Below are positions 10,055 through 54,649 of a stretch of 64,000 nucleotides of DNA, in pieces. The position numbers were made by a program, and so were the translations under genes. The notes beneath the pieces are model-generated. The model was given only the letters and a program-made list of their open reading frames with translations. It was not told the origin of the DNA and did not search any database. The DNA is from Armatimonadota bacterium (lineage in GTDB: Bacteria; Armatimonadota; SYMT01; JACQGL01): positions 712 to 64,711 of the forward strand of contig JACQGL010000205.1 in the NCBI GenBank assembly GCA_016199525.1. The letters are read 5' to 3'. Numbering within the stretch: the first letter of the stretch is position 1; each line of letters starts with the position of its first letter.

Positions 10055-10124
10055 GTATGAGGTGAGCGAGATTGTACCACGGCGCCAGAGCAGTGTCAAG
10101 CAAGCGTCGGCCCCCCGGCGAACC

Positions 10125-18948: not shown

Positions 18949-18972
18949 CCCTCCCGAACGCTTTCGGGAGGG
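18949..18972. repeat. Palindrome-family variant CCCTCCCGAACGCTTTCGGGAGGG (intergenic hairpin)
   Basis: 10-bp arms with a 4-nt centre, and the same CCCGAA..TTCGGG core. Confidence 0.7.
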
Positions 18973-19026
18973 CATTCGGGACTGTGCTGGTTCATTTAGA
19001 CGACTGCTCAAGGGCTTTTCTTCTCT

Positions 19027-20670: not shown

Positions 20671-20676
20671 TCCGCT

Positions 20677-35522: not shown

Positions 35523-36242
35523 CTAATCGGGGTTCTCCTCCAGCCAGCGCTGGAGGGCCGCGTTTTCCTCGGCCAGGACGTCCGCATTTAGCAGCCCCCG
35601 CTGCAGGCCTTCGAAAACAGCCCGGCTGCGGGGGCTGAACATGCTGCCCGGTTCCTCCTCGCGTTCCACACCCAGCCTGGTGTAGAGGCCGTGTAACCGG
35701 TTCTGGGCGCCGCGCCGGGAGAGATAGCGACGCCGGGCGATCCCCCGGTCCGTCAGGCCCAGGGCAATGTCGATCAACGCCTCGTACTCGGCGTCCGTTA
35801 GCGCGCTGGGAGATTGCAGCGCGCGAGCCTGCACGCCGCGAATCTCCCGGTCCAGCCAGCACTGTTCTTCCAGCAGAACCATTCGCACGGCCTGAACCAG
35901 CTTCTCATCCGGGCTACTCTTCAGCACGTAGCCATATACGGTCTCCGGCGGGACGATCTGCGCCAGCCGGCGCACATAGATCTCGTCTTTGAACTGCGAC
36001 CAGAACACGATGCGCGTTTCGGAACGTTCTGCCCACACGCGGCGCGCTATCTCGATGCCATTGAGGCCCGGGAGCTGGATATCCATGACCAGCAGCTGTG
36101 GCTGTTCCTGCCGCGCGTGAATGAGCGCCTGCGCGCCATCGCCCACCGCCGCCAGGGGCAGCGCCTGCGGGATCCGTTCCCGTAACAACCGCTCCAGGTG
36201 CTCACGTTGCGCCGTGTTGTCTTCAACAATCAGCGTTTTCAT
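35523..36242 (-). CDS. Response regulator, NarL/LuxR family (REC domain plus HTH)
   Basis: N-terminus MKTLIVEDN..VMDIQLPGLNGIE with a C-terminal LuxR-type HTH. It lies directly downstream of a HisKA_3 kinase. Confidence 0.8.
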   Translation of the reverse strand: MKTLIVEDNTAQREHLERLLRERIPQALPLAAVGDGAQALIHARQEQPQLLVMDIQLPGLNGIEIARRVWAERSETRIVFWSQFKDEIYVRRLAQIVPPETVYGYVLKSSPDEKLVQAVRMVLLEEQCWLDREIRGVQARALQSPSALTDAEYEALIDIALGLTDRGIARRRYLSRRGAQNRLHGLYTRLGVEREEEPGSMFSPRSRAVFEGLQRGLLNADVLAEENAALQRWLEENPD

Positions 36243-36252
36243 CAGTCAGGTG

Positions 36253-38448
36253 TCAGTTATCAACGCTGTCCGCGGGTGTCTCGCGTAGCGGCAGGCAAAC
36301 TTCCACCCGCGTGCCGCCCGTTTCCCGGGCGCTCCAGCGGACACGAGCGCCGATCAGGTCGGCGCGGTAGCGAATGTTGGCCATCCCGAAAGCTTTCGGG
36401 ACTCCCGCCGCCTGCTCCAGATCCAGGCCGCAGCCATCGTCCCAGATCACCAGGATCAGCGCGCCATCCGCGTGCTGCACCTCCAGACCGGCGTGCCGGG
36501 CGCCGCTGTGCTGAAACAGGTTGTGGATCGCTTCCTGGCAAATGCGGTACAGGGCCAGGCGCTGGTCCGCCGTGAGTGTGGGTTCTTCGCCCACACGGCG
36601 CACGGTAACCGCCAGGGGCGGTGCGCAGCGCGCCGCGCCCGTGCGGAGGGCGCTCTCCAGCGCATCCCCCAGACCCAGCATATCCAGAACGGAAGGCCGG
36701 AGCGCTTCCATTACCTCGCGGACGCTGTTCATCGCGCCCCGCAACTCTGCCTCCAGATGCTCTAGCTCGGACGCGATATCACCGGGACAATGCTTGAGCC
36801 GTTCCGCCTGGGCGGCGATCTGGCGCAGCTCGGGGAGCACCTGGTCATGGAGGTCTGCCGCCAGTCGCCGTCGTTCCTCTTCCGTGCCGGCGAGCACCCC
36901 GGCGGTTCGTGCCGCCAGCTCGGCCCGTTGCCGCTCCAGGAGAGCGGCGCTGAGACGGGCGTTCTCCAGCGCTACCGCCGCCTGCACTGCCGCCGCGACC
37001 AGCAGCTGGCGCTCTTCGGTGGTGTAGGGCAAGCCGCTCTCCCGGGGACCAATCTGCAGGGTGCCCCACACCTCCTGACCGCGGCTCACAGGGATCGCCA
37101 GCTCTGCCTGCTTCTCTGGCGCGCCGTCCGGAAACACAAAGCGCACCAACGTCGGATGCAGCGCCTGCCGAACGCCTTGCTCCAGGGCGCGCAGCACTCC
37201 CTTGGCATCCGTTTGCCCGCCCAGATTCTGCGCCAGCCGGATCAATGTCTGGCGTGTCATGTCAACATCGCGGAAGAACCGACGATCCAGGTCGCGTAAC
37301 ACTTCCTGACGCTTGCCAAGCAGCAGTGCGACAATGAACATCCAGACCAGGTAGGGAACCATCTCTGCCGGGCGGCCGCGAGCGTGGGTCACGGAGATCT
37401 GCCCCAGGCGCCAGACGAGAAGGAACCCGGGGAGCAGAAAGAGCGTGCCCAGCGTCCAGCGTGCCAGCAGGTACTGGAGCGTCCGGCGGGCGACCACCCG
37501 GACTTCCAGCGCCCGCAGCCGGAACACGAGGTGGGCAACAGCAGCCCCAAACAGAGCCGCCGGCAACAGGCTGACCGGGGCGAACTGGTCGGGAACGGCC
37601 CACATCTGCTGCGAGATCCCTACCAGAACGGCGGCCAGTATTGCACCCGCAGCTACCGTGAGAGCGCGGATGATCGGGCGGCTGGCTTCGTCGGCACGTC
37701 GCCAGCCAGCGAGCACGATCGCCAGGCCGTAGATCGCATAACCAATGCCGATTACGTCAAACAGACCTGCCGCCGCCCTGGTTCTGCCTTCGCGCACCAG
37801 GCCGGCGCCCAGCAGGCCAAACAGGAATAGCGGCAGGTAAACGGCAACGGCCATTCGCCAGGGACATTGTGGTTTCTGCCGGGGGGCGGCGGGGAAGATG
37901 GAAAAGAAGTGGGCGGCGAGCGCCAGCGCCACCAGGCGGGGCGCGCGGGGGAACGCGAACACGGGCGCCGATATCAGCACTAATCCCAGAAGCACGGCGC
38001 GGCCATCCCGGGGTTGCTGCCAGAACAGCGCCAGCGCTACCGCTACCAGGCCTCCCTGGAGGAGCGCCAGAGCCCACCAGGCCAGGTGCACCGGCCACGC
38101 GGGTGCGGCGGGCTGAACTGCTAACCGCAGCACCTTTCCCTGGCGGATGATCTCCGCCCAGCCGGCGCGCGGCACGCCACTGCTCCACTGGACCCACTGC
38201 CCTATCCGGGACGGGGCGCCCGCCACCGTGAGCGTCTCGCCGTTTACCCACCGGTCGCCAGTCAGCACGCCGGCGCGACTTAGCGGGCTGCCCGGCTGCA
38301 CGTAAAGCCGCCGCTCCGGCCCCAGCACCAGCGCGCCAGGCGCTGCGCGCGCGCCGCCCACGAGCGGCCGAGCCATCGCACCGAGGAGAGCGAGGCTACC
38401 TGCAAACAGGAGCAGATAGGTGTACCAGGGCCGGGGCATATCTTTCAT
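36253..38448 (-). CDS. Sensor histidine kinase (HisKA_3 / HATPase_c) with a large multi-TM N-terminal sensor domain. The start is probably MKDMPRPW; the ORF is open to 38685.
   Basis: H-box ADLHDQVLPELRQ, an ATPase domain, and ~10 predicted TM helices. It contains an in-frame palindrome copy (GVPKAFGMANIR). Confidence 0.8.
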   Translation of the reverse strand: MKDMPRPWYTYLLLFAGSLALLGAMARPLVGGARAAPGALVLGPERRLYVQPGSPLSRAGVLTGDRWVNGETLTVAGAPSRIGQWVQWSSGVPRAGWAEIIRQGKVLRLAVQPAAPAWPVHLAWWALALLQGGLVAVALALFWQQPRDGRAVLLGLVLISAPVFAFPRAPRLVALALAAHFFSIFPAAPRQKPQCPWRMAVAVYLPLFLFGLLGAGLVREGRTRAAAGLFDVIGIGYAIYGLAIVLAGWRRADEASRPIIRALTVAAGAILAAVLVGISQQMWAVPDQFAPVSLLPAALFGAAVAHLVFRLRALEVRVVARRTLQYLLARWTLGTLFLLPGFLLVWRLGQISVTHARGRPAEMVPYLVWMFIVALLLGKRQEVLRDLDRRFFRDVDMTRQTLIRLAQNLGGQTDAKGVLRALEQGVRQALHPTLVRFVFPDGAPEKQAELAIPVSRGQEVWGTLQIGPRESGLPYTTEERQLLVAAAVQAAVALENARLSAALLERQRAELAARTAGVLAGTEEERRRLAADLHDQVLPELRQIAAQAERLKHCPGDIASELEHLEAELRGAMNSVREVMEALRPSVLDMLGLGDALESALRTGAARCAPPLAVTVRRVGEEPTLTADQRLALYRICQEAIHNLFQHSGARHAGLEVQHADGALILVIWDDGCGLDLEQAAGVPKAFGMANIRYRADLIGARVRWSARETGGTRVEVCLPLRETPADSVDN
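36383..36400. repeat. Palindromic repeat copy TCCCGAAAGCTTTCGGGA (inside the kinase CDS)
   Basis: Perfect 18-bp palindrome, identical to the copy at 8192. Confidence 0.9.
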
Positions 38449-38743
38449 ATAACCGTTCTGTTGCGCCGATGCAATCGGATATCTCCGCCGTTCCCACGGT
38501 GCAAAAGCACAGCCGCCCTGACGCTCTTGCCGCATCAATCGTGCGCTGTTCCCGCTGGGGCGCGGCGGCAGAACCAGGTATGCTGAAGCTGGAGGTGGGG
38601 GAAGAGGAACTACGGGGCGCGTGCCGCCCCCAGCGCTCCCCGCGGCCCCGCCGGAACCCTCTTCCCGTCCTGAGCCGGGGAGCATAGCGGAGAGATAACG
38701 GGAGATACAGTAGCACAGTAGAGACGTCGCAGGGAGGACAAGA

Positions 38744-39403
38744 ATGCAAACGTGGAAGAAGATCGGCGTTTTTGGCGGGCTGGCAGCGGCCCTTGTGGTG
38801 GCCGGCGCAGGCGTTTCGCGCGCTGCAGGGCCAGAGGGGCCCTGGGGCCGGCGTATACGGCTGATTCAGGCGCTGCGGGCGCTGGGGGTGACCCCCGACC
38901 AGGGGCGCGCGCTGAAAGCCGCGGCGGTGCACCTGGCGGTCGAGCGCCGGGCGCTGAACCTGGAAGATCTGTCGGCGCCCGAGCGCAAGGAGCGCCTGTT
39001 CCAGCTGCGCCGCGATTTCTTCGCCCGCGTGGATGCCACCCTTACCGCCGACCAGAAGGCGAAGTTGAAGGCCTGGTTCGAGCAGGGACGCGCGGCGCGC
39101 GCGGAGCAGCTCCGACAGAGAGCTGCCGCATTCGCCACGCAGCTGCAACTTACGGCGGAGCAGCGCGAACGAGCGAAAGACATTATCCAGCAGGCGAAGG
39201 CCAGGATAGACCAGGTGGCAGGCGATGCAGCGGTGGATACGCCTACGCGGCTGGCTACGGCGATCGGGGTGCTGGAAGAGATACCCGGTCAGATCTACCG
39301 CACCCTCACACCTGAGCAGAAAGAGAAGGCAAAGGGCCTGCTGGAGGCGGCTATCCGGTCCCGTCTACCCGTAGAGAACCTCCTCAACCAGGACGCGCCC
39401 TAG
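38744..39403 (+). CDS. Periplasmic LTXXQ-repeat protein (CpxP/Spy/ZraP family-like)
   Basis: Signal peptide, and three LTxxQ motifs (LTADQKAKLKAW, LTAEQRERAKDI, LTPEQKEKAKGL). It is divergent from the kinase-regulator pair. Confidence 0.7.
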   Translation: MQTWKKIGVFGGLAAALVVAGAGVSRAAGPEGPWGRRIRLIQALRALGVTPDQGRALKAAAVHLAVERRALNLEDLSAPERKERLFQLRRDFFARVDATLTADQKAKLKAWFEQGRAARAEQLRQRAAAFATQLQLTAEQRERAKDIIQQAKARIDQVAGDAAVDTPTRLATAIGVLEEIPGQIYRTLTPEQKEKAKGLLEAAIRSRLPVENLLNQDAP

Positions 39404-39416
39404 CTCCATAAACAAC

Positions 39417-39445
39417 GCAGCAATGCGTCTGTTGCTTGCTCTTTT
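39417..39445 (+). terminator. Putative rho-independent terminator after the LTXXQ gene
   Basis: Imperfect hairpin GCAGCAA..TTGCTTGC followed by TCTTTT. Confidence 0.4.
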
Positions 39446-39522
39446 GCCCCTATCTGGACGGCCGGGTTCAGGAGTAGGAGGTAAGAAGCAAGACAGCAGA
39501 AACGCGGCTGTAACGCCGAGCC

Positions 39523-39557
39523 AGAACCAGTTCCGGAGCTGCTCCGGAACTGGTTCT
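39523..39557. repeat. 35-bp perfect inverted repeat AGAACCAGTTCCGGAGC-T-GCTCCGGAACTGGTTCT
   Basis: 17-bp arms around one central nucleotide. Operator-like or cruciform-capable. Confidence 0.9.
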
Positions 39558-40042
39558 ACGTTTCACCTGAGGGCAACCTCACCCCCCGGGCCAGCTCGGG
39601 AGGCATGGCGGGCAGAAGGTCCGAAAGTTGGATCAAACTCCAGGAATCCGATCCCGTAAGTGCGCTGCTCCGGCGCCCGACAGCACCCCTGGCGCTCACT
39701 GCCAGGCCCTATCGACGGTACCTTGTAGGCATACTGCTCCTCCGGGCGACAACCCTACCCAGGCCGATGTTCTCCGCACGATAGAGGATGCGCCGACCCT
39801 GGCGCGGTTCGCCGGGCAGGCCCGTGACGTCGCGTATGGGAAGAGCTAGTGGACCATGAAACCAGTAGAGAGGCAATAAACCGTTTCCGTTCGACTACCA
39901 CACGCCCGCGCAGGTTATGTAAATCTTCTCATCGCTGCGGTTTACGATGGTAAACCCTGTAGGAACCACACTGTTGCCCAGTGCGAATAGAGACCCGCAA
40001 CCAACGCTCTGATGACCAGATAAGCACTGAGTCTGACTGACC

Positions 40043-40072
40043 AGAGCAGCAACGAAACCTTGCTGCTCTTTT
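40043..40072 (+). terminator. Rho-independent terminator (AGAGCAGCAA-cgaaacc-TTGCTGCTCT followed by TTTT)
   Basis: Perfect 10-bp stem, 7-nt loop, and a U-tract on the plus strand only. Confidence 0.7.
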
Positions 40073-40399
40073 CGTGAATACCTTCTATATATCAATAGGG
40101 GAATAACTGTGTCGCCGTACGATTCCCCGTGCTAGGCACGCACTGGCTTACAGCGCCAGGGAGATAAGATCAGCGCTCTTGCAGAGAGAGCTGTGGTAAA
40201 GCGGGATGTCGCTCCTCCCGCTATGCCCGTCCCGCAGTCCCGTTGCACCCGCGTCTGAAAGCAGCTTTAATGGGCTGGATTGAGCCACGAGCAGGAAAAG
40301 CGAAGATTTAGCACAGGCTTCAAGCAGGCTGTACGCTCCCTTTACCGGCCCTTTACCGGCGCGCGGTATGTTGTTGTTGGGGGAAAGGGGGCGAGGGAG

Positions 40400-40483
40400 A
40401 TGTGCGTGCTGTTAGCATTCATCAGTTTTGTAGCCCTGATGTTCATTTCGGACATGCTGGAGCGCCGTCAGCGCCACCGCTGA
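40400..40483 (+). CDS. Possible 27-aa hydrophobic mini-protein MCVLLAFISFVALMFISDMLERRQRHR
   Basis: Strong SD (GGGGGAAAGGGGGCGAGGGAG) before the ATG. A single TM helix with a basic C-terminus. It overlaps the 3' end of the convergent kinase gene. Confidence 0.3.
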   Translation: MCVLLAFISFVALMFISDMLERRQRHR

Positions 40484-41945
40484 CCACTGGCTTTCGTACT
40501 TCGTCCGGTGCCGCGTGCGTGTCACCGTTCTCGAGGGTAATGGCGCCTGTCGGCAATATGAAGGAGAACCGGCTGCCGACGCCCACCGTACTCTCTACGA
40601 ATACCTGGCCGCCGTATGCCTCGATAATCTCCTTGACGATGGACAGCCCGAGACCCGTGCCCGCCAGGTGCCGCGTGTGCGGATCGGAGCTGCGGTAGAA
40701 GCGCTCAAAGATACGCGCCAGATCGGCCGGTGGTATGCCGCTGCCGTGGTCCTCGACAAACACCCTGATCCATTCGTCTTCCCGTTCTGCACCCAATACC
40801 ACGGATTCCCCGACGGGGCTGTATTTGACGGCGTTGTCCAGTAAGTTGGCCAGCACCTGCTCCAGTTGCTGACAGTTCGCGTTAACCACGGCGGGCGGCC
40901 CCGGGGCAACTTCAAAACGCACCTGCTTCTCCGCGGCCACCGGCTCCATTAGCCGGGCGACGTCGTGCAGCACTTCGTTCACCTCAACCGGCGCGCGACT
41001 GTAACGCTCCACTCCGGTATCCAGGCGGGCGATGCTGAGGATGTCGTCCAGCAGAGCGCTGAGGTGCCGGCTCTGCCGTTCCAGGGTTTGCAGGAACTCT
41101 GTGGCGACTGCCGGGTCGTGAATTCCTCCCACGAGCAGCGCTTCGCAGGTGGCCCGCAGCGCCGTCACCGGGGTCCGGAGCTGGTGGCTCACATCCGCTG
41201 CGAAGACCTCACAGGCGTCCCTCTCCTTCTTGAGCCGCTGCACCATCTCCCGCAGGCGGCGGGTCATCAGGTTGAGGCTTTCGGCAAGCCGACCCACCTC
41301 GTCGGACGATGTCACCGTCAGGTGCTGCTCCAGGTCGCCGTCCGCCACCCGTCGCGCCATCTTCTCCATCCGCGCGACAGGTCGCGACAGGCTGGTCGCA
41401 ATCCGGAAGCTGAGCCAGCCCGCCAGCAGCATAGTGACGATCATGGTATCGATGGCCATCCGGCGGATCTTGCTCAGGGCGCGAGCGACGGTGAGGGAAG
41501 GAACCGTGAGCTGGACCTCGCGCACCGGGCTGCCGGCCACGCGCACCGGCTCCACGCTGTGCACGGATTCTACTTTCCGCTCTTCCTCGTGGCATACGGC
41601 ACAGGCCCTCTCCTGCCGGCCGGCGCGATGCACCCCGCTGCTCCCATTGCTCTGGCTATCGGCCAGCGCAACCCCGCCCGCGCCCAGGAGGGTCACCTGC
41701 GCGCCGACCTGCTTGCCCAGCGCATCACAGAGAGACTTGAGGTCGGCGGGAGGACCCGCGCGGTCGAGACTCTGGGACAGCAGCCGCGCCACCAGCCGGG
41801 TATGTTCCGCCGTCGCCTCACGGATGGATTCCAGGTAGTACTGCTTCACGGCGGAGAGGACGCGCACACCGAGTACCGTTACCGCCAGGAAGATGAGCAG
41901 CGTATAGGTAAGGGCAAGGCGGTAGCGGAGGCTGAGAGAGCGCAT
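40443..41945 (-). CDS. Sensor histidine kinase (HisKA + HATPase_c) with a CXXCH heme-c motif in the periplasmic sensor domain
   Basis: Two TM segments flank a periplasmic loop of ~140 aa that contains ACAVCHEEER. Also has a HAMP-like region, the H-box EVFAADVSHQLRTP, and G-boxes. Confidence 0.8.
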   Translation of the reverse strand: MRSLSLRYRLALTYTLLIFLAVTVLGVRVLSAVKQYYLESIREATAEHTRLVARLLSQSLDRAGPPADLKSLCDALGKQVGAQVTLLGAGGVALADSQSNGSSGVHRAGRQERACAVCHEEERKVESVHSVEPVRVAGSPVREVQLTVPSLTVARALSKIRRMAIDTMIVTMLLAGWLSFRIATSLSRPVARMEKMARRVADGDLEQHLTVTSSDEVGRLAESLNLMTRRLREMVQRLKKERDACEVFAADVSHQLRTPVTALRATCEALLVGGIHDPAVATEFLQTLERQSRHLSALLDDILSIARLDTGVERYSRAPVEVNEVLHDVARLMEPVAAEKQVRFEVAPGPPAVVNANCQQLEQVLANLLDNAVKYSPVGESVVLGAEREDEWIRVFVEDHGSGIPPADLARIFERFYRSSDPHTRHLAGTGLGLSIVKEIIEAYGGQVFVESTVGVGSRFSFILPTGAITLENGDTHAAPDEVRKPVVSGGADGAPACPK

Positions 41946-41951
41946 CTTGGT

Positions 41952-42632
41952 TCACCCCTCGAATCGGTAGCCCACGCCGCGGAGGGTGACGATGCGCACC
42001 GGGGCCTCCGGGTTCTTCTCGATCTTCTCCCGAAGGGAGTGAATGTGAACATCCAGGGTGCGCGTCTCCACGGCAAACGGCTCCCCCCACACCGTTTCGT
42101 AAAGGAACTCGCGGGACAACACCCGGCCTTTATGGTTCATGAGGGTTTTCAGTAACTCGAACTCCTTCAGGGTGAGATCCACACGACGGCCCTGCAGGAA
42201 GACCTTGCGGGAGTCGCCGTGCAACTCCAGGTCGCCCGACACGAGGGCCGATTCGGCGACCTCCAGGTCTTGCATCCGGCGGAGGACGGCGCGCACGCGG
42301 GCAATCAGTTCACGAATGCTGAACGGCTTGGTCACGTAGTCGTCGGCTCCCACCTCTAGGCCCACCACCCGATCCACTTCTGCCGTGCGCGCGGTGACCA
42401 TGATGATCGCCGCCGCTGATTCCTTTCGCAGCGACCGGCACACGGAAAGCCCATCTATATCCGGCAAGATCAGGTCGAGCAGCACGACATCCGGGCGCCA
42501 GGCACGCCCTTCCGCAATGGCTGTCTGTCCATCCGAGGCGATACGCGTGAGAAAGCCTTCCTTCTCCAGGGCGTAGCACAGCGAACGCGCAATATCTCTC
42601 TCATCCTCAACTACCAGGACTTTCGTGGTCAT
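41952..42632 (-). CDS. Response regulator, OmpR/PhoB family (the ORF is open upstream to 42923)
   Basis: N-terminus MTTKVLVVEDERDIA..LLDLILPDIDG and a C-terminal winged helix (LRGVGYRF). GGGAGGGGAGGG RBS. Confidence 0.85.
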   Translation of the reverse strand: MTTKVLVVEDERDIARSLCYALEKEGFLTRIASDGQTAIAEGRAWRPDVVLLDLILPDIDGLSVCRSLRKESAAAIIMVTARTAEVDRVVGLEVGADDYVTKPFSIRELIARVRAVLRRMQDLEVAESALVSGDLELHGDSRKVFLQGRRVDLTLKEFELLKTLMNHKGRVLSREFLYETVWGEPFAVETRTLDVHIHSLREKIEKNPEAPVRIVTLRGVGYRFEG

Positions 42633-42738
42633 GGCCCTCCCCTCCCGCGCTCTCCCACCAGCCGGTATCCCCCGGGTGCGCAGGGCGGAACGGGACTCCC
42701 AAAGGTGGTTTGGGGGTGCGCCGCCGGCTCCCCCGACC

Positions 42739-45219
42739 TCAATTCGGCTGCGTTGCATGACAGCGCAAACAATCCTCCAAGGCGAAGGCTCGCGTCCCGT
42801 TATGGCAGGCGCCGCATTGCTGCCCGCCCCCCATCTTCGCCATAGTGCAGGCGCCGCTCTCCGGGCGGCGCATCGGGAACAGACGCGAGTGGCACCCGGC
42901 GCAGCCATTCTCAGTGTACCCACGGTGCCGCGCGTGGCTGAATGTCACGGCGCCCGGGCTGCCCTCACCGGTGGGGAACCGGTAATCCGCCGGGGCAGCC
43001 TGCGCGTTCGACGAAGCCACCGGGCGAACCGTCGGTTTCCTGGGGGTGGCGTGGCAGAGGCCACAATCTGAAGCCACGGTAAACGCCTCCTTGCCGTTGT
43101 GGCAGAATCCGCACTGACGGCCTTCCTTCATGGAGGCCATACGCAGGTCGGGCGAAGAGACCATGCCAAAGAGTGCCGGGTGGCAGGTGGAACAAGTGCC
43201 ACCGCGGGAAAGATGAGCGCGATGGCTGAACGTTACCGGCCCGGGTGCGGCCTGGACGCGTCGCACACGATCCTCCGGCACGCGGTTCACATGCGCGACG
43301 GCGCCGCCCGGCGATGGGGAACTCCCCCGGTGACACAGCGCGCAGTCGGTGGCCACGGTGAACGCATCTCGCCCGTTATGGCACTTGCCGCACCCCTCGC
43401 CCTGGCGCATAGCCGGCATCTTCAGCGGACCGTTTTCCGGCGCTACCATCCCGAAGAGCGCCGGATGGCACGCGGTGCATTCGTCGTTCACGTGCGCCAG
43501 ATGCTGCCGGTGGCTGAAGGGCACCGGGCCCAGGCTCTGCTTCTGTGATGTGAACTGGAAATCCGCGGGCGGCGCAATCTGCCGGGCGGTTACGGAGGAA
43601 ACCGTGATGCCGCTACCGCTGGAGTGGCAGAAGCCACACCCATCCCGGACCTCAAACGCGTCCACACCATTGTGACAGGACTGGCACCGGTCCATCGTGT
43701 CGATGGTGTGCCCGGCGCCAGCACTGGCGGGCCGCGACATGAGAAACAATTCTGCGTGGCACGTTTCGCAGGCGAGATGCTGGCCGTTGACGTGCGTCGC
43801 GTGCCGGAACACCACCGTTCCTGGACTTACGGCGCCTTGAGGAAAGCGCTGCTCCGCAGGCACGCGCAGGGGAACCGTGGCCATGCGCGCCGCGACCTCC
43901 TGGAGGCGCGGGAAGCTGGGGCCCAACCGGCCGCTAGGGGACGCGGCTGCCTCGTTCGCCCGCACGAAAATCGCCGCAAGGGCGAAGAACATCGCCAGGC
44001 CGCTCAGGAAAGCGATACCGGCGGGCGTCGCAATGGGCGCTTCTCCTGGGTGGCCTGCCGGCCGGTTCCGTAGAAGTGGGGCGTAGCTCACGCCCTCCTC
44101 CGACCCTTCCTGGGGGGAAGGAAAGACCGGCAGGTAGCGCGCCGCCATCCCGAACGCCAGGAATCCGCAGGCGATGATGGCGATGGTGATTGCCATCTCC
44201 ATCCAGGTGGGGAAGTAAGCCTGACCGGCGCTCCGCTGAACCCCGGTAAAGCTGACGTTCAGCCGATTCAGCACAAATCCGCACAGCGCCAGGAGCGCGG
44301 CCAGGAACAGTCCGGTGCGGTCGCCGCGCACGCGTGGTGTCAGATAGAACGCTATGGGCAGCACACTGCCCAGGGCGACCTCCAGCAGAAACATCCGACT
44401 CTCCAGGGAACCTTCCAGCACCAGCCCCGCCTTTCCCCGCGCCAGCAGATCGGCCAGCCGGATCGCCAAGCCGAGGAGGAGCACCCCGGCGCTCGCCTTT
44501 GCCAGTCCCTGAAGGATGTCCCGGTGTACGCCAGTTCCGAAAGCCCGGTGGCTCAAATAAGACTCAAAGATAACCATCGACAGCCCAGCGCCCACGGCGG
44601 ACACAAAGAAAAACAGCGGCAGCAGCGGGGAATACCATAGCCCGTGCAGCTTGTTCGGCACGATGAGGAACAGGGTTCCGAGGGATGACTGGTGCAAGGT
44701 GGAGAGCAAGACGCCGGTGATGACCAGCGGCACGATCGCCGCGTGAATCCAGCGGAGGGGTGTCTGGAGGCCGAGCCGCTCAAGTAACGCGGGGCTGAAC
44801 TCCAGGGCGAGCACACCGGTATAGAACATCACGCACATCGCCACCTCGAAGAGCGGCGAGTGGAGGTTGCCCATAATCAGGGGGTGCCAGATGCGGTACG
44901 GCAAGCCGAGGTCGCATAGCAGCGACACGATGACCAGCAGATACCCCAGGAAGGCGGTCAGTAGGGACGCCCGCAGGATGGCGCGGTACTTTTCCAGGCG
45001 GAACACGTAAACCATTGCGGCGAGGGTGAACCCTCCCGCGCTGAGACCGACGCCGCAGAGCACGTCGAAGCCGATCCAGAGCCCCCAGGGATAGGCATCG
45101 CTGAGGGCCGTCGTGGCGCCCAGCCCGTAAACAAACCGCGCCACGAGGGAGTAGATTCCTGCGCCGAGGATGATAATAAGCATCGCGCGCCAGAACGTGA
45201 TGGAAGGACGGGGTCTCAT
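42739..45219 (-). CDS. Fusion protein: N-terminal NrfD/PsrC-like polytopic membrane (quinone-interacting) domain plus C-terminal dodecaheme cytochrome c (4 x c7-type triheme repeats)
   Basis: ~400 aa with ~10 TM helices, then 12 CXXCH motifs with a recurring F.H..H(x6-9)C..CH pattern (for example VTFSHRAHLSRGGTCSTCH). ATGA overlap with the upstream ferredoxin gene. Confidence 0.8.
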   Translation of the reverse strand: MRPRPSITFWRAMLIIILGAGIYSLVARFVYGLGATTALSDAYPWGLWIGFDVLCGVGLSAGGFTLAAMVYVFRLEKYRAILRASLLTAFLGYLLVIVSLLCDLGLPYRIWHPLIMGNLHSPLFEVAMCVMFYTGVLALEFSPALLERLGLQTPLRWIHAAIVPLVITGVLLSTLHQSSLGTLFLIVPNKLHGLWYSPLLPLFFFVSAVGAGLSMVIFESYLSHRAFGTGVHRDILQGLAKASAGVLLLGLAIRLADLLARGKAGLVLEGSLESRMFLLEVALGSVLPIAFYLTPRVRGDRTGLFLAALLALCGFVLNRLNVSFTGVQRSAGQAYFPTWMEMAITIAIIACGFLAFGMAARYLPVFPSPQEGSEEGVSYAPLLRNRPAGHPGEAPIATPAGIAFLSGLAMFFALAAIFVRANEAAASPSGRLGPSFPRLQEVAARMATVPLRVPAEQRFPQGAVSPGTVVFRHATHVNGQHLACETCHAELFLMSRPASAGAGHTIDTMDRCQSCHNGVDAFEVRDGCGFCHSSGSGITVSSVTARQIAPPADFQFTSQKQSLGPVPFSHRQHLAHVNDECTACHPALFGMVAPENGPLKMPAMRQGEGCGKCHNGRDAFTVATDCALCHRGSSPSPGGAVAHVNRVPEDRVRRVQAAPGPVTFSHRAHLSRGGTCSTCHPALFGMVSSPDLRMASMKEGRQCGFCHNGKEAFTVASDCGLCHATPRKPTVRPVASSNAQAAPADYRFPTGEGSPGAVTFSHARHRGYTENGCAGCHSRLFPMRRPESGACTMAKMGGGQQCGACHNGTRAFALEDCLRCHATQPN

Positions 45220-46010
45220 TGGGGCTCGCCTCCTTCGCCTGATTCCGATTCGGCGGCGACTTCCGCGTCGGCCACTGCTTCAACAGACGTCAGGGCTGCA
45301 AGCTGTATGCGCCGATTGATGACCCACGATAGGCCGAACAGGACGGCCGCTCCAAAGCTCACAATGAAGGGAGTCTTCGAGAGCACACCCCAGGTGAGTT
45401 CCGGATAGGCTTCATCGCGGACCCCCGTCTTGAACCCGAGTTCTTCAAACGGTACGGGCGACAGATAGAGCACCGAGGTGCCGCCCGCCTCGCGCAGCCC
45501 GTAAATGTGAGGCACATACTGCTCCGGGTTCTCTCGGATCCGCCGCTCTGCTTCTCTGATCAGGGCGTCCCGATCTCCGAACAGCGTCGCCCCGGTGGGG
45601 CAGACCGCCGTGCACGCGGGTTCTTCGCCCTGCTTCAGACGCTTTTCGTAACAGAGGACGCACTTCTGGGTGATGGGCAGAGCTCTATCCCACTGGTATT
45701 TGGGAATGTCAAACGGGCAGGCCATCACGCAGTAACGACAGCCAATGCAACGGCTGGCGTCGTAGGTTATCGCGCCGGTTTCTGTTTTGCGCAGCGCTCC
45801 CACGGGGCAGACCGAGGCACAGGTTGGCTCCAGGCAGTGCATGCACATGCGCCGGATGAAGGTGTTGTGGCGATAGTCCACGTAGGTCCAGGTGTCCGCC
45901 TCCAGCTGCGATGCTTTTCCGCGGGGCAGATTATTGATCTGTTTGCAGGCCGCGGCGCACGCGCCGCAGCCGATGCACTTCGTCAGGTCGTTCAGAACCC
46001 CGGCTCGCAT
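45216..46010 (-). CDS. 4Fe-4S ferredoxin-type iron-sulfur subunit (HybA/NrfC/PsrB/HmcB-like) with a C-terminal TM helix
   Basis: Four Cys clusters (CIGCGACAAAC..CP, CMHCLEPTCASVCP, CIGCRYCVMACP, CVLCYEKR..CTAVCP). GAGAGGGAG RBS before the ATG at 46010. Confidence 0.85.
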   Translation of the reverse strand: MRAGVLNDLTKCIGCGACAAACKQINNLPRGKASQLEADTWTYVDYRHNTFIRRMCMHCLEPTCASVCPVGALRKTETGAITYDASRCIGCRYCVMACPFDIPKYQWDRALPITQKCVLCYEKRLKQGEEPACTAVCPTGATLFGDRDALIREAERRIRENPEQYVPHIYGLREAGGTSVLYLSPVPFEELGFKTGVRDEAYPELTWGVLSKTPFIVSFGAAVLFGLSWVINRRIQLAALTSVEAVADAEVAAESESGEGGEPQ

Positions 46011-46206
46011 ATTGGTCTCCCTCTCTGCCACGATGGCAACCGGCCGGGATAACCCGGCTCGCCTGAGACCCGGAGTCTGTCAGCGCCGCCCCCGAGTGAG
46101 CCCGCGCCCCTTTTCCGGCGTCCGCCCCACCGCAGAGGGCTGTTCTTCCGCCAAGTACCCATCGCTTTTCGCACGATGGACCCCCGATTCGACCGACGCG
46201 GCCCGT

Positions 46207-46404
46207 TTATGGACCCTTCGAATCGGACAGGCCGCTCATCTGGCGGACCGCTGCATGTGGCGCCCCTCCCGCCGACCCGTCGAGCGTCCACGCTTCTTCT
46301 AGATCCGATCGGACCCCAGCCGCTTTTCGGATTCTTAGCATTTCGCTTACCCAGTCAAGCAGAATGAATGTGACCATGGTGAGCAGGACAAGCATTGCTA
46401 CCAT
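46207..46404 (-). CDS. Small single-TM membrane protein (hypothetical), first gene of the cytochrome operon
   Basis: AAGGAGGT RBS, hydrophobic N-terminus MVAMLVLLTMVTFILLDWV, and an AT-rich promoter-like region upstream. Confidence 0.45.
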   Translation of the reverse strand: MVAMLVLLTMVTFILLDWVSEMLRIRKAAGVRSDLEEAWTLDGSAGGAPHAAVRQMSGLSDSKGP

Positions 46405-46905
46405 CTCGTCCACCTCCTTCCGCGCGCGTCCTGTATCGAGAGGTTACCTGTACACCAGATTTATTGTAGGTTCAGGATGTAAAATCAATTTAAAATCCGA
46501 CATAAGTTCATGTTAATTGTCCGGGCGGCGGGCTCCTGATCGCCGCGACGGCGAGTTCGGGTGAGGGCCGAGAGAGCACCGGCCCACCAACAACACGATC
46601 GGCAGCAGCAGGGGGCACAGCAGGACTCTCAAACGACGGCATCTACAGCGACTGGCCAGCAGGCAGACCTACGGAGAGCAGATCGGGGAGGACGTCCGGC
46701 GCCCGGGTCCGGTAATGGAACCGCGACCGCAAGGGAGCGGCAGGCAAGGGCACCTGGATTGCGGGTGGCGGAGGGGAAACAGCGAACGCAGCGCGAGTAC
46801 CGTCGATTCGGCCCCCCGGCCGTTGCATTACAGAGGGGCTTTGAACGGGGCGTTCGGCGTGGGGTCGTATCCCGAACGCTCCCGCGCTCGAATGGGGAAC
46901 GCCCT

Positions 46906-49077
46906 CTACACCGTTCCTGGGCCCGGCGCGTTCCCCGGCACTCCCGGGGTGATCCCTGGTGGAGAGCCGGGGGTGGGCGGCGAGGGGACGACAATGGGCG
47001 GCGTGCCCCCCAGGCGACGCAGGCCCTCGCGGGCCGGTCGGAAAGCGGGATCCGCCGTCAGGGCGCGCTGATAGTCGGCACGGGCTTCTTCTCGCCGGCC
47101 CAGGGCTTCACGGATCGCTCCCAGATGATAGTACATCTCCGCTTCGCCCGCCTCTCCCCGGAAGCCAGCCATCCGCGCAATTGCGCGCAGCTGGATCGGC
47201 AGCGCTTCTGCGAACCGTTGCTGGCGATAATAGACCCACGCCAGCGTGTCCAGATACGCAGGGTTACCTGGCTCTCGTTTGAGCGCCGACTCCACGAGTG
47301 CAAGTGCCTCATCCAGATGGTCGTTCAGCGAATTAGCCAGCGTGTAAGCCAGGTTGTTCTCCACCAGGGCCCGCTGGCGGGGATCCCGGACGAGGGCTAG
47401 CGCGTCTCGCCAGGCCTCTATCGCCTGCTCCGGGTGCCCCTCACGCTCCAGCGTCCCCGCCATGTCTACTACCAGCAGTTCCGCAACCAGCTGGCGCACG
47501 CGGTCATCGTCCTGGTGGTCAGCCACCAGGTCCTGAAGGCGCCGACGAGCCTCCGGCCAGCGACCGGTCCGGATGAGCCAACTCCCCAGCGCGAGAACGG
47601 CATCCTGGTCGTTGGGCCGCAAGCGGAGGTATTCTTCCAGCTGCTGTGTCGCCTCGCGAAGCTGCCCCTTCCGCCAGAGCAGTTGGGCGAACTGGAGTCG
47701 CGCCTTGGCGTCGGTATATCGTGCTTTCAGGTAGCTATCAAGAAGGGTCCAAGCCTCGTCCAGTTCACCCGTGATCACCAGCAAGCGGGCGAGCTGAAGG
47801 CGCACCTCCACCAGCTGCGGCTGGCGCGCGGCGGCCAGGCGGTACTGCTCGACCGCGTACCCGTACTCCTGCCGCGTCTGGGCAACAGCGCCCTGGAGCA
47901 GCGGGCCCTGCACGCCAAAGTTCACCGTAAGCCCCGCCAGACCGACGACGGCCAGCGCCAGCGCCGGGAGACTGGCGGCGGGCAGTGGGAGCGCTTCCCG
48001 TGCCGCCCGCTCGTCCCCCATCACACGCCCCTCCAGCAGGTAGCCGAGCAGCGCTCCCGCGGCGCCGCCCCCCATCAAGCCGAATACGTCCACCACCTGG
48101 GCATGCGTTGCTGCCACGAGCCCCTGCGCCAGGAGGAGCGGCCCCAGCCACCGGAGGCGTGCGGCGATCCGGGGGGCCTGATAGGCGCGGTACTTCCACT
48201 GGTGCACGGCCAGCGCTCCCATTACCCCCAGCAGCGGCGCGGATCCCAGCACGGAGAGCATGGGATTGAATCGGTAGCTGGCCGCCGCTCCCGCGGTTCC
48301 CGCCAGCAGGAAAATCGTCAGCAGCCGCGCGCGGCCGTAACAGGCCTCCGCCACGCTGCCCACCACAGCCAGCGTCAACAGGTTAATCAGGAAATGGATG
48401 AGGCTCGCACTTAGAAACGCGCTGGTGACCAACCGCCAGTAGTCCCCGGTATCAATGAGTTCCTTTACCTTGGCGCCGAGAAAAACGAGCACGCTGTCAT
48501 TCTGGAAGGCATCCCACCGGAAGCCTCCGATCCAGAAAACGGCGAGCACGGGCAGGGCGAGTGCCACGGCCAGCCAGACAGTAACCACCGGAAACGGCGG
48601 CGGCACCTGGCGCACGGGGATCGTCGTCCCGCCCAGCGCAGGCATAGCCATTGGTGAAGCGGCGCCGGCGCCGTCATCCTCATCCGCGAAAACCCATGGG
48701 GACAGCCCAGGGGGAGGCGGCAAGCGGCCCCCAAGTACGATCACCTGACAGCCGTGGCGGGCGGCAGCCCGTGCCAGCGCCTCGAGACTACGCTCCAGGC
48801 CCGCGTCAAACGGCGGTGAGGGCAGGTCCCGCAAGATCAGCACGGGTGGGGCCTCTGCCATCAGAAAGCGGACTGCCTCCGCAAGCGTCCCCGCGTGATC
48901 GGCCCCCTCCTCGCCCACCTGGCCTGCCACCGTCCAGATCCTGGCGTCCTTGCCCTGGCCTGCGACCATGGCTCGCACCCTCTCGATGATGTCGGCATCG
49001 GCAGGCAGATGCGCCCAGATCAGAGGGCGCTGCTGGTGAAGCGCGCGCTCGAGCGCCTGGTACTCGCTGGGACTCAC
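46906..49077 (-). CDS. Rhomboid-family intramembrane protease with an N-terminal cytoplasmic domain and C-terminal TPR repeats
   Basis: HFLINLL (TM2 H..N), GSAP.. (TM4 Ser region) and a TM6 His region, followed by ~300 aa of TPR-like repeats and a Pro-rich tail. Confidence 0.65.
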   Translation of the reverse strand: MSPSEYQALERALHQQRPLIWAHLPADADIIERVRAMVAGQGKDARIWTVAGQVGEEGADHAGTLAEAVRFLMAEAPPVLILRDLPSPPFDAGLERSLEALARAAARHGCQVIVLGGRLPPPPGLSPWVFADEDDGAGAASPMAMPALGGTTIPVRQVPPPFPVVTVWLAVALALPVLAVFWIGGFRWDAFQNDSVLVFLGAKVKELIDTGDYWRLVTSAFLSASLIHFLINLLTLAVVGSVAEACYGRARLLTIFLLAGTAGAAASYRFNPMLSVLGSAPLLGVMGALAVHQWKYRAYQAPRIAARLRWLGPLLLAQGLVAATHAQVVDVFGLMGGGAAGALLGYLLEGRVMGDERAAREALPLPAASLPALALAVVGLAGLTVNFGVQGPLLQGAVAQTRQEYGYAVEQYRLAAARQPQLVEVRLQLARLLVITGELDEAWTLLDSYLKARYTDAKARLQFAQLLWRKGQLREATQQLEEYLRLRPNDQDAVLALGSWLIRTGRWPEARRRLQDLVADHQDDDRVRQLVAELLVVDMAGTLEREGHPEQAIEAWRDALALVRDPRQRALVENNLAYTLANSLNDHLDEALALVESALKREPGNPAYLDTLAWVYYRQQRFAEALPIQLRAIARMAGFRGEAGEAEMYYHLGAIREALGRREEARADYQRALTADPAFRPAREGLRRLGGTPPIVVPSPPTPGSPPGITPGVPGNAPGPGTV

Positions 49078-54638: not shown

Positions 54639-54649
54639 ACTTTTCCGCT

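Follow-up and report, generated by a model that had tools for sequence, protein, structure and literature searches.

The question posed by this locus is what could be served by a quinone-type membrane protein that carries twelve c-type hemes on the same polypeptide, and whether such a protein is genuine and singular. It lies in a 64,000-nucleotide stretch from the genome of an uncultured Armatimonadota bacterium, referred to here as the window, for which a preliminary description had proposed a single-chain conduit from the quinol pool to the periplasm or the cell exterior. The answer that we favor, with moderate confidence, is a membrane complex of three subunits, all encoded in the operon, which links the periplasm with the pool of (mena)quinone.

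The fusion protein and its probable partner subunits

The main ORF (42739-45219, minus strand) encodes 826 aa, in which a 10-helix NrfD/HybB-type domain is followed by an 11th helix and by four c7 triheme domains. The N-terminal, quinone-interacting domain (aa 1-395; 44035..45219, minus strand), initially described as an NrfD/PsrC-like polytopic region of about 400 aa, is recognized as such by Pfam NrfD (aa 40-328, 73 bits, cut-off 25.8) and by the NCBIfam profiles of HmcC (316 bits, the top match, far under the equivalog cut-off of 550) and HybB (288 bits); it is 37% identical to E. coli HybB over its full length (356 aligned aa, E 4e-61), and its ten helices are modeled by AF2 with pLDDT 70-96. 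Among the 25 residues proposed for the quinone site and proton path of HybB, 21 are identical or conservatively replaced in the fusion protein, including D52, S99, D103, S121, E125 and T182 of the quinone site; likewise retained are R83, Y93, E140 and H176, which correspond to four positions of HybB at which replacement lowers hydrogen oxidation (PMC8076601). The family is predicted to have an ActC-type fold, from the structural match of a homolog (P0104) to ActC of alternative complex III (6btm_C, TM-score 0.64), and in a distance tree the fusion family forms a separate clade, far from HybB.

The 11th helix (aa 399-426; 43942..44025, minus strand), found both by a hydrophobicity scan and in the AF2 model, leads from the NrfD domain, which ends on the cytoplasmic side, across to the periplasm, and it is missing in HybB and in the unfused relatives, which stop near aa 390. 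Over 66 family members the mean number of K+R is 20.6 on the N-terminal side of this helix and 5.7 on the other, and this, together with the count of eleven helices, places the N-terminus inside and the c7 domains outside, as a periplasmic location of the hemes requires.

The heme region (42757..43836, minus strand) is homologous to GSU1996 of Geobacter (3ov0_A, E 1.4e-48; also the GSU1996 fragments 3oue, 3ouq and 1rwj). The twelve heme motifs in four c7 repeats that had been claimed are indeed there: CXXCH occurs exactly 12 times in the protein, always between aa 484 and 821 and grouped by threes into four domains (d1, 43624-43836; d2, 43330-43545; d3, 43051-43260; d4, 42757-42969, all on the minus strand), with four matches each to Pfam Cytochrome_C7 (170 bits) and to NCBIfam TIGR04257, “nanowire_3heme.” In d2, d3 and d4 only two spare His are present in each, plus a conserved Met, so that one heme per domain may be His/Met-ligated. 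The confidence of the AF2 model over this region is low (pLDDT 30-65).

Upstream, sharing the ATGA at 45216-45219 with the fusion gene as had been noted, is the gene of a tail-anchored ferredoxin (45216..46010, minus strand) with a Pfam Fer4_11 match and 16 Cys in four [4Fe-4S]-type motifs (aa 12, 56, 88 and 117 from the ATG start). Its ORF extends to a GTG at 46031, and an in-frame stop 16 codons 5′ of this GTG makes a longer N-terminus impossible; the ATG at 46010 is the likely start, which is also that of the NCBI annotation (264 aa). The subunit is HybA/HmcB/FdnH-like; the earlier comparison with HybA, NrfC and HmcB had overlooked that, unlike these, it has no Tat signal. The NCBIfam scores for HmcB (247 bits, cut-off 420) and HybA (215 bits) are both under cut-off, the match to the HmcB profile begins only at profile position 37, that is, without the signal region, and the alignment with HybA (35% identity, C-terminal tail helix included) begins at HybA residue 39; this residue lies just past the HybA Tat signal. 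The nearest solved structure is that of FdnH (1kqf_B).

A Tat signal was found neither in this subunit nor in about 80 relatives, and the lack of a signal is a family-wide feature newly noticed here. The tail helix (aa 213-231; 45318-45374) has on average 4.0 K+R after it and 2.1 before it, which predicts that the Fe-S domain is outside. Since no recurring partner with a Tat signal was found within 10 kb of the related loci either, this predicted periplasmic domain would have no known export route. QrcC is exported like FdnH, by way of a signal-bearing partner.

The operon begins with a small gene (46207..46404, minus strand), with the RBS GGAAGGAGG ahead of its ATG, for a single-helix membrane protein of 65 aa that begins MVAMLVLLTMVTFILLDWVSE and has homologs in the same position at three other loci (L001, L005 and L088). 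Its helix resembles the N-terminal anchor (MVAILVVLTII.F..IDY) of the GcvH-like proteins encoded 5′ of the Fe-S gene in other phyla; this match is a further family-wide feature newly noticed here, and the small protein is probably an accessory subunit. The RBS and the AT-rich stretch reported earlier were found again: the leader (46425-46530) has 42% GC against 67% for the window, a consensus scan places in it a candidate promoter, TTAACA-18-TAAATT (46487..46516, minus strand), and its blocks AATT.ACA..AACTT ... GATTT.AAA ... TTTACAT are conserved at the orthologous locus L001.

The heme-sensor kinase and the wider family

A two-component system follows on the same strand, as had been described, and it is no incidental neighbor. 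The OmpR-type response regulator (41952..42632, minus strand; Response_reg and Trans_reg_C) lies 106 nt downstream of the fusion gene, which the same regulator gene also follows in L001 and L089. The sensor histidine kinase (40443..41945, minus strand; HAMP, HisKA, HATPase_c) has two membrane helices around a periplasmic domain with one c-heme motif, CAVCH (aa 115-119; 41589-41603). Profile comparison (hhalign probability 93%, E 2.6e-7) identifies this sensor region as a homolog of the sensors with heme motifs in the sigma-54-type clusters; 17 of 21 of those sensors match PF21563, the Geobacter heme-c sensor family. Of 85 related loci, 73 have a kinase with a periplasmic c-heme motif beside the module, usually as the next gene on the same strand and in one apparent operon (55 of the 64 unfused loci), and in all but two of these 73 kinases at least one CXXCH or CX4CH motif lies within residues 1-330. 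Of the two, L065 is an over-extended ORF in which the CXXCH comes later, and L012 has a kinase that is built differently. The regulator varies, OmpR-type at this locus and NtrC-type elsewhere, while the heme sensor domain stays, and in some related clusters a receiver domain is fused to a GcvH-like protein with the same membrane anchor as the small protein. The near-constant adjacency of the c-heme sensor kinase is likewise a newly noticed feature of the family.

That relatives keep the NrfD protein and the cytochrome separate is correct for the characterized systems, and wrong overall: 119 of the 120 best matches to the 826-aa protein are fused, and since at least 1,500 matches were obtained at E 1e-5, the fusion can no longer be seen as a singular design. 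Thousands of database proteins carry 3, 6, 10, 12 or 15 hemes joined to NrfD. The family is thus widespread, itself unstudied, and the 12-heme protein is its expanded version, an Armatimonadota elaboration of the common 3-heme form. The 12 motifs recur at the same positions in four further clusters of proteins (824-832 aa), whose sequences derive from NCBI, JGI and Logan assemblies made separately, and the fusion is not the frameshift artefact that the preliminary description had named as a possible objection.

That the Fe-S, NrfD and c7 parts belong together is indicated by a locus (L034) where a secreted c7 triheme gene precedes the Fe-S gene and an unfused NrfD gene, and by natural single-chain fusions of the types Fe-S-NrfD and Fe-S-NrfD-c7. 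Close relatives of the fusion protein include unfused ones, and for 63 of 64 of these no c7-like cytochrome was found within 10 kb, so that the module does not always require a cytochrome partner; over the same distance, most unfused clusters encode no cytochrome other than the kinase heme. The unfused locus L065 has only a distant 4-heme ORF.

A predicted electron path and its alternatives

In the complex that we favor, quinol would be bound by the NrfD/HybB-type domain near the periplasmic face, and the ferredoxin, docked on the same face, would receive the electrons in its four [4Fe-4S] clusters and hand them on to the twelve c-type hemes, which the 11th helix and a linker some 45 residues long tether to the NrfD protein. 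The four GSU1996-like c7 units could serve as a membrane-anchored wire or electron store, handing electrons to periplasmic or outer-membrane-proximal acceptors encoded outside the window, and electrons could also travel the path in the opposite direction. To judge from the conserved HybB-type proton-path residues, the quinone reaction is probably coupled to proton movement. The kinase c-heme and the OmpR-type regulator would most likely sense the periplasmic redox state and set the expression of the operon, by analogy with Geobacter: there, when the potential falls, the sigma-54 regulator BccR induces cbcBA, the quinol oxidoreductase operon next to it, and GSU0599, the neighbor gene of bccR, encodes a kinase with c-heme motifs. 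A compact conduit from the quinol pool to the periplasm remains the best-supported function. Apart from the genes described, the 20 largest ORFs in the window include no molybdopterin or hydrogenase subunit and no catalytic redox subunit of any other kind, in agreement with the preliminary description. An extension of the conduit to extracellular electron transfer finds no support in the window, where neither a second multiheme ORF nor a gene for an electron acceptor or donor near the operon was found.

As the genes of the operon abut or overlap, a one-base error could have run two genes together, one for an NrfD protein and one for a cytochrome, and a c7 gene of its own does exist in a relative (L034); the probability of such an artefact is negligible, and this explanation is effectively refuted by the recurrence of the fusion, with its 11th helix, in hundreds of independent assemblies, by the matching motif positions in the four other 12-heme clusters, and by the 11th helix itself, which exactly meets the topological requirement. 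It is very unlikely, moreover, that the signal-less Fe-S subunit docks on the cytoplasmic side, with electrons going from a cytoplasmic donor to quinone and the c7 domains taking them straight from quinol at the periplasmic surface. This would agree with the universal lack of a Tat signal, even in the Fe-S-NrfD single-chain fusions, where an N-terminal domain of about 210 aa loaded with cofactors would otherwise need to cross the membrane, with the lack of a conserved Tat partner nearby, and with the cytoplasm-facing NrfD complex already proposed for SoeABC (PMC8076601). However, by the positive-inside rule the N-terminus of NrfD and the C-terminus of the Fe-S tail are cytoplasmic, and 10-helix NrfD proteins have cytoplasmic termini and the Fe-S subunit on the opposite face (PMC8076601); an inverted NrfD domain would leave the c7 domains, which eleven helices precede, in the cytoplasm and unable to receive heme, and FdnH, without a signal of its own, is exported together with a signal-bearing partner (bioRxiv 10.1101/2023.11.02.564894).

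Two other readings concern the purpose of the path. That the complex is mainly a quinone reductase, like Qrc or Hmc, in which periplasmic donors (hydrogenase, formate dehydrogenase, reduced cytochromes or external ones) would feed the heme chain and finally menaquinone, is possible, if on the unlikely side. Nothing in the sequence fixes the direction of flow, the best family matches, HmcC/HmcB and HybB/HybA, bring electrons from periplasmic oxidations into the membrane (PMC8076601), and Qrc, with the same kind of module, is a cytochrome c3:menaquinone oxidoreductase (PMC13059093, PMC6303296); but the window contains no periplasmic hydrogenase or formate dehydrogenase, similar unfused clusters of metal reducers have been interpreted as quinol oxidases (PMC9386147, PMC7327174), and a triple-fusion relative (Fe-S-NrfD-c7) adjoins genes for reductases like NapA, NapB and NrfA, and these depend on a quinol-oxidizing donor. 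We regard it as rather improbable that the module is a signal-input device instead of a bulk respiratory enzyme, one that brings the heme of the neighboring kinase into equilibrium with the quinone pool and thereby lets the kinase report the redox state of the respiratory chain, with the c7 domains as relay or buffer. The frequency and position of the kinase, the persistence of its heme motif across regulator types, its standing as sole cytochrome of most unfused clusters, and the receiver-domain/GcvH-like fusions, which hint at direct signaling contact with the complex, all point that way. Regulators, however, commonly adjoin the respiratory operons they control, as bccR does cbcBA; an array enlarged to 12-15 hemes suggests a capacity for conduction or storage and not for sensing; the fully conserved proton-path residues suggest energy-coupled turnover; and within 8 kb of one 15-heme locus there is no kinase.

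Relation to known systems

The complex would be a fused variant of the known modules of NrfD, Fe-S and multiheme subunits, such as Hmc, Nrf and similar clusters. The closest characterized sequences compared are HybA and HybB of E. coli hydrogenase-2, which likewise combine a 10-helix quinone subunit without cofactors and a ferredoxin with four clusters; unlike there, no hydrogenase genes are present, the scores fall under the HybB and HybA cut-offs, the Fe-S subunit is without a Tat signal, and the membrane subunit has an extra helix and twelve hemes. The same three-part logic is found in Hmc of Desulfovibrio (HmcA with 16 hemes, HmcB Fe-S, HmcC NrfD-type), Nhc, Qrc and E. coli NrfBCD; the Hmc cytochrome, however, is separate and of c3 type, whereas here it is of c7 type and covalently fused, and HmcD, HmcE and HmcF are missing.

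Unfused clusters of NrfD, 4Fe-4S and multiheme proteins known from genomes (Methanoperedenaceae, MBNT15, Melioribacter; likewise modules of a tail-anchored Fe-S, a HybB-like and an octaheme protein), also without a catalytic subunit, have the same predicted role and were interpreted as menaquinone:cytochrome c oxidoreductases (PMC7327174; PMC9386147; bioRxiv 10.1101/2023.11.02.564894). In the unfused clusters the cytochrome has its own gene and the Fe-S subunit, where examined, its own Tat signal (bioRxiv 10.1101/2023.11.02.564894), in contrast with the fused cytochrome, the signal-less Fe-S subunit and the linked heme-sensor kinase of this locus.

The dodecaheme “nanowire” GSU1996 of G. sulfurreducens (PDB 3ov0) shares the four tandem triheme units, although it was solved as a stand-alone chain of 318 residues, whereas at this locus a polytopic membrane protein carries the array at its C-terminus. 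Geobacter CbcL is analogous in that it joins c-hemes to a quinone oxidoreductase, but the scaffold of CbcL and CbcBA is a di-heme cytochrome b, in place of the cofactor-less NrfD domain with its Fe-S subunit, and the likeness of BccR/GSU0599 to the present system lies in the arrangement of c-heme kinase and regulator. Finally, ActC of alternative complex III (ActABCDEF) is the best structural match of the membrane domain (6btm_C, 6f0k_C, 8k9e_C), while the ActB-type molybdopterin-like subunit and ActD, ActE and ActF have no counterpart at this locus, whose cytochrome is of the c7 type and not ActA-like.

The NrfD-c7 fusion and its operon

The fusion protein of 826 aa is encoded on the minus strand of the window at 42739-45219 and is preceded on the same strand by a ferredoxin ORF of 271 aa (45216-46031), the two ORF calls overlapping by 4 bases (ATGA). 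The ferredoxin most likely starts at the ATG at 46010, with GAGAGGGAG in front of that ATG, and its public annotation (MBI3911774.1, 264 aa) has the same start; the fusion protein is identical to NCBI MBI3911773.1 from an Armatimonadota MAG, where it bears the label ‘Ni/Fe-hydrogenase cytochrome b subunit’. ORF calls together with Pfam and NCBIfam searches bear out what the preliminary description had read here, namely NrfD and twelve hemes in a single chain, a ferredoxin with four Cys clusters, and the ATGA overlap. The flanks that it had described are likewise found in the window: upstream of the ferredoxin gene lies the gene of a single-helix small protein of 65 aa (46207-46404, minus strand), with a strong RBS and an AT-rich leader, and 106 nt downstream of the fusion gene begins a two-component system that comprises an OmpR-type regulator (41952-42632) and a HAMP/HisKA kinase (40443-41945), both on the minus strand.

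The leader of the small gene has 42% GC, against 67% for the window, and a promoter-like site lies within it. At 46425-46530 it has conserved blocks (AATT.ACA..AACTT ... GATTT.AAA ... TTTACAT) in common with positions 8790-8935 of the related locus L001, and these have been kept although the proteins of the two loci are only 69% identical; judged from its sequence, this AT-rich stretch is a candidate regulator-binding and promoter region. No RNA element was found with Rfam, at gathering thresholds, in window 39000-48000, and the predicted folding of the 106 nt between the fusion gene and the regulator gene is no more stable than that of shuffled sequence (z 0.48). The stretch of ~1 kb downstream of the kinase gene (39404-40442) has no ORF of more than 80 aa and a lower GC (0.50-0.60).

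Just beyond the operon are the gene of a periplasmic LTXXQ-motif (CpxP/Spy-like) protein (38744-39403, plus strand) and a second two-component pair, a GAF/HisKA_3 kinase and a receiver protein (36253-38685 and 35523-36242, minus strand), and this region is rich in envelope-signalling genes. The window also carries, on the plus strand, a squalene-hopene cyclase gene (11489-13507), a tmRNA gene (54289-54640), and two RND efflux systems (1716-7476 and 17377-23865) that include TolC-like outer-membrane factors; these pumps and factors point to a diderm cell that has a periplasm.

No CXXCH occurs ahead of aa 484 of the fusion protein, and thus its membrane part is free of heme motifs. This part matches NrfD (Pfam PF03916) over aa 40-328 with 73.3 bits, against a curated cut-off of 25.8, and aligns nearly end to end with HybB of the E. 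coli hydrogenase-2 membrane module (37% identity over 356 residues, E 4e-61). It is neither HmcC nor HybB, since its best NCBIfam scores lie under the equivalog cut-offs (288.5 bits against 450 for the HybB equivalog NF008133; 316 against 550 for HmcC), and the ferredoxin likewise stays under the HmcB cut-off (247 against 420; HmcC/HmcB equivalogs NF045714 and NF045715). The AF2 model gives the membrane domain ten confident helices (pLDDT 70-96), with an extra helix after them, and the model of the homologous protein P0104 resembles the ActC chains of alternative complex III (TM-score 0.60-0.64); on these models the domain is assigned to the ten-helix HybB/ActC subgroup of the NrfD/PsrC family. 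For HybB, 25 residues have been proposed to form the quinone site and two proton half-channels (Calisto and Pereira, PMC8076601), and at 21 of these 25 positions the membrane domain is identical or conservative, which points to a putative quinone site; most are invariant across 66 family members. R83, Y93, E140 and H176 are kept, the equivalents of four functionally tested HybB residues whose replacement reduces hydrogen oxidation (PMC8076601).

The heme region (aa 484-821) has exactly 12 CXXCH motifs, grouped three by four, and neither CX3CH nor CX4CH was found in the protein. Cytochrome_C7 (PF14522) recognizes four units (170 bits), each of ~70 residues, TIGR04257 (‘nanowire_3heme’) four copies. 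Among solved structures, the region has as homologs the Geobacter dodecaheme GSU1996 (3ov0, E 1.4e-48) and fragments of it (3oue, 3ouq and 1rwj). Domains 2-4 have just two spare His each, together with conserved Met, and therefore one heme in each of these domains may be His/Met-ligated. The four c7 domains of the protein share 44-58% identity among themselves, but 63-72% when each is compared with its same-numbered counterpart in the nearest ortholog, and the duplications therefore date far back in this lineage.

With regard to topology, 11 helices precede the heme region, both by hydrophobicity and by AF2, which models the heme part itself with pLDDT 30-65. The loops on the N-terminal side carry a mean of 20.6 Lys+Arg across 66 family members, against 5.7 on the other side, which argues for a cytoplasmic N-terminus. 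As c-type hemes must be attached outside the cytoplasm, it is pertinent that the topology prediction suggested in the preliminary description puts the c7 hemes on the periplasmic side (11 helices, Lys+Arg bias). On this topology the cytoplasmic side is also where the ten-helix domain ends, like the ActC-type ten-helix proteins (PMC8076601), and helix 11 leads the chain out; HybB and the unfused relatives end ahead of this helix. From its motifs and its location outside, the c7 region is predicted to be a periplasmic c-type cytochrome with covalent hemes.

A family of fused and unfused forms

A frameshift that artificially joined two genes can be ruled out, as four other protein clusters (824-832 aa, 60-69% identical to the window protein), stemming from separate NCBI, JGI and Logan assemblies, have their 12 motifs at the same positions; two further clusters, of 938-955 aa, have 15 motifs. 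The comparison of genomes thus upholds the fusion as real, but not the singularity that the preliminary description had attributed to it, because such fusions are common in uncultured bacteria. The family search gave at least 1,500 matches at E 1e-5 or better, and among the best 120 of these there are 89 proteins with 3 hemes, 22 with 6, five with 12 and two with 15, as well as one with 10 hemes of a different cytochrome type. This last protein, P0042 (729 aa), joins the same NrfD domain to hemes matching Pfam Paired_CXXCH_1 and PF22113, which means that multiheme domains of at least two kinds have been added to the NrfD scaffold. The named sources are Armatimonadota, Acidobacteriota (Blastocatellia, Terriglobia), KSB1, Latescibacterota, Eisenbacteria, Bacteroidota/Ignavibacteria and Methylomirabilota.

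Relatives are encoded in at least 598 species-level genomes, and the 80 of these that were fetched contain 65 unfused NrfD-type ORFs (~390 aa, in 64 loci) and 16 fused ones, 15 with 3 hemes and one with 6. A rough distance tree places the whole family far from HybB, with the unfused forms mostly basal and the 12/15-heme clade sister to a 6-heme clade. In a Methylomirabilota MAG (locus L034), a separate c7 triheme gene with a signal peptide (1293-1709) immediately precedes the genes of the ferredoxin and an unfused NrfD protein, an arrangement which, by its sequence, is the split counterpart of the fusion.

Across phyla the usual gene order is GcvH-like protein(s), ferredoxin, NrfD (with or without c7), sensor kinase, sigma-54 (NtrC-type) regulator and Peptidase_M54. 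The kinase and the regulator are each found in 57 of the 64 unfused loci and the peptidase in 55; the kinase gene is immediately downstream, in the same orientation, in 55 of these 64. Of the 21 fused loci, 16 have the kinase. Two helices of these kinases flank a sensor of ~170 residues with a CXXCH and usually a second motif, CX4CH, which is retained in those kinases that have no CXXCH; in a sample of 23 sensors, 17 of the 21 from sigma-54-type clusters match PF21563, the Geobacter heme-c sensor of the GSU0582/GSU0935 type. The sensor of the window kinase, also between two helices, is shorter and has one c-heme motif (CAVCH, aa 115-119); it gives no direct PF21563 match, and hhalign relates it to the profile of the related cluster sensors with 93% probability (E 2.6e-7). 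The regulator of the 12-heme clade is OmpR-type; the window and L001 both have a heme-motif kinase, and so does locus L089, where it is inverted. At L089 (3118-5988) the OmpR-type regulator follows the fusion gene, and the kinase (CSPCH at aa 118), preceded by a 736-nt ORF-free gap, lies convergently with a second regulator, so that the genes are those of the other loci, locally rearranged.

In most related clusters, among them most of loci L007-L086, genes for GcvH-like proteins (205-400 aa) flank that of the ferredoxin; examples matching PF01597 lie at 7209-8837 in L003, 7687-9202 and 11566-12339 in L008, 8017-9210 in L012 and 7213-7962 in L016. Three kinds can be told apart: some have a membrane anchor at the N-terminus, others a Cys motif there (CVWM.AG.V.YKLCDR.F.C..CP.D), and others are fused to a receiver domain. 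The anchor type does not conserve the lipoyl-lysine motif of true GcvH. The Peptidase_M54 (archaemetzincin-like, ~180 aa) after the sigma-54 regulator is at 14648-15229 in L003 and in the same position in 66 of 85 loci. Neither GcvH-like nor M54 genes are present in the window, and its small upstream protein matches the N-terminal anchor of one GcvH-like type. Of 86 loci scanned strictly for sigma-54 promoters (TGGCAY-N5-TTGCW), only 10 have sites, and these lie ahead of the cluster in some cases and face divergent genes in others.

Export of the ferredoxin and the electron path

The ferredoxin has 16 Cys in four cluster motifs, matches Fer4_11 (75 bits) and, among solved proteins, FdnH (best), ArrB and PsrB, and is 35% identical to HybA from HybA residue 39 through the C-terminal anchor helix, which it shares. 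In 111 homologs the tail carries 4.0 Lys+Arg after this helix against 2.1 before it, and the Fe-S domain would thus lie outside, as in HybA and FdnH. No Tat signal is found on the window ferredoxin, which has 11 residues before its first Cys and an in-frame stop upstream, nor on the module ferredoxin of ~80 related loci, where N-termini such as MSKGILYDATLC are typical; the best 120 homologs are just 246-295 aa long, which leaves no room for a signal peptide. The sole Tat signal among the ferredoxins of these loci, at L067, belongs to a second, unrelated NrfD cluster. FdnH, itself signal-less, is exported with a Tat-signal partner, and there is one further such case of a signal-less ferredoxin, with an [FeFe] hydrogenase (bioRxiv 10.1101/2023.11.02.564894). 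In 85 loci no Tat-signal protein was seen repeatedly at a distance of up to 10 kb from the module. The window has none close to the operon; its only convincing case, an ORF of 154 aa (24593-25057, minus strand; MTRRRFGLSFLAAGLAPAAWLAG), was rejected as an export partner, being unrelated and 20 kb from the operon.

Single-chain Fe-S-NrfD fusions, in four full-length clusters of ~654 aa and a shorter one of 553 aa, are also without a signal, as is the one Fe-S-NrfD-c7 fusion seen, P0104. For the triple fusion, an alignment that placed Fe-S sequences on the NrfD region at 20-25% identity (A2) was discarded; with natural Fe-S-NrfD fusions as bridges the alignment (A3) came out correctly. The AF2 model of P0104 (pLDDT 75, pTM 0.73) has the tail helix and 11 helices between its Fe-S and c7 domains, and since the crossings are even in number, both domains are predicted to lie on one side of the membrane.

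A path from the quinone pool to the periplasm is the best-supported reading of the operon: electrons would go from the quinone site through four Fe-S clusters to twelve hemes, all anchored in one complex, which the adjacent redox-sensing regulatory genes would control. The direction, the coupling, the partners and the export of the Fe-S subunit are what we infer in this scheme, which has three main rivals. A complex running in the quinone-reducing direction would draw on the same quinone site and hemes. A cytoplasmic Fe-S domain would be in keeping with a ferredoxin that starts without a signal, but conflicts with the topology evidence. The complex could instead be a redox input device for the kinase, whose gene is a near-constant neighbour with heme motifs. 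A specific proposal of this kind, for which we would give only a slim chance, is that the family (signal-less tail-anchored ferredoxin, HybB-like protein with or without c7, and single-helix or GcvH-like anchor) is a dedicated relay wiring the quinone pool to the periplasmic kinase heme, its Fe-S subunit being exported without a Tat signal of its own or of a neighbour; if true, two-component systems would have an accessory input complex of a new kind.

Regarding the partners of a quinone-pool-to-periplasm path, the preliminary description had seen no molybdopterin catalytic subunit near the fusion, and none is present among the 20 largest other ORFs of the window, which have housekeeping, efflux, protease and regulatory functions and include no molybdopterin enzyme, hydrogenase or cytochrome; nor is there a second multiheme ORF, as every other ORF of the window has at most one CXXCH. 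At another locus, L004, genes for NapB-like, NapA-like molybdopterin (Tat signal SRRDFLK) and NrfA-like (Cytochrom_C552) proteins (4726-9251, minus strand) are divergent from the Fe-S-NrfD-c7 triple fusion (10001-12460), and a sigma-54-type promoter match at 9754 faces these genes, whose products are possible electron acceptors and which may themselves be regulatory targets.

Provided that the complex has the proposed function, one membrane protein takes electrons from the quinone pool via Fe-S clusters into a tethered chain of twelve hemes, which would replace the diffusible periplasmic cytochromes used by model metal reducers, and the family would show the growth of a heme wire by domain duplication, with 0, 3, 6, 12 and 15 hemes on one scaffold. 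Three oddities of the family are unreported and testable: the signal-less ferredoxin, the near-constant heme-sensor kinase and the GcvH-like anchor proteins. For protein export, a ferredoxin that is predicted to be periplasmic and yet universally lacks a Tat signal is a concrete puzzle, and the tight association with heme-containing sensor kinases makes the family tractable for work on how bacteria sense the redox state of the periplasm or the quinone pool. As the family is large, spans several phyla, including soil Acidobacteriota, and is mislabelled as ‘Ni/Fe-hydrogenase cytochrome b subunit’, correction of this label matters for metabolic inference from metagenomes.

Comparison with known systems

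The systems to which the membrane domain is related are accompanied by genes that were not found in the window: those of [NiFe]-hydrogenase-2 in the case of HybB, hmcA, hmcD, hmcE and hmcF in that of the Hmc complex, and, in alternative complex III and Qrc, the ActB or QrcB molybdopterin-like subunit and further Act/Qrc subunits (the QrcD profile scores the window protein at 144, against a cut-off of 570). Unlike the HybA-type tail-anchored proteins, which are Tat-exported, the window ferredoxin has the anchor without the twin-arginine signal. Geobacter Cbc5 (GSU0590-0592), as an unfused set of dodecaheme, Fe-S and NrfD proteins, was dropped as a counterpart, since the Geobacter papers give GSU0591 just as a cytochrome with sensor-type heme motifs and contain no account of such a set. 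On the regulatory side, c-heme motifs are also found in a Geobacter kinase, GSU0599, whose gene adjoins that of BccR, a sigma-54 regulator that acts as inducer of a quinol oxidoreductase.

In open-access full texts neither an NrfD-c7 fusion nor the conserved cluster was found described, which is weak evidence of absence, and neither ‘fused’ nor ‘fusion’ occurs in the review of NrfD-like subunits (PMC8076601). Unfused clusters of NrfD, Fe-S and multiheme proteins are well known from genomes and interpreted as menaquinone:cytochrome c oxidoreductases (PMC7327174; PMC9386147; bioRxiv 10.1101/2023.11.02.564894), and for the joining of a quinone oxidoreductase to c-hemes there is a precedent in CbcL, whose scaffold is a cytochrome b.
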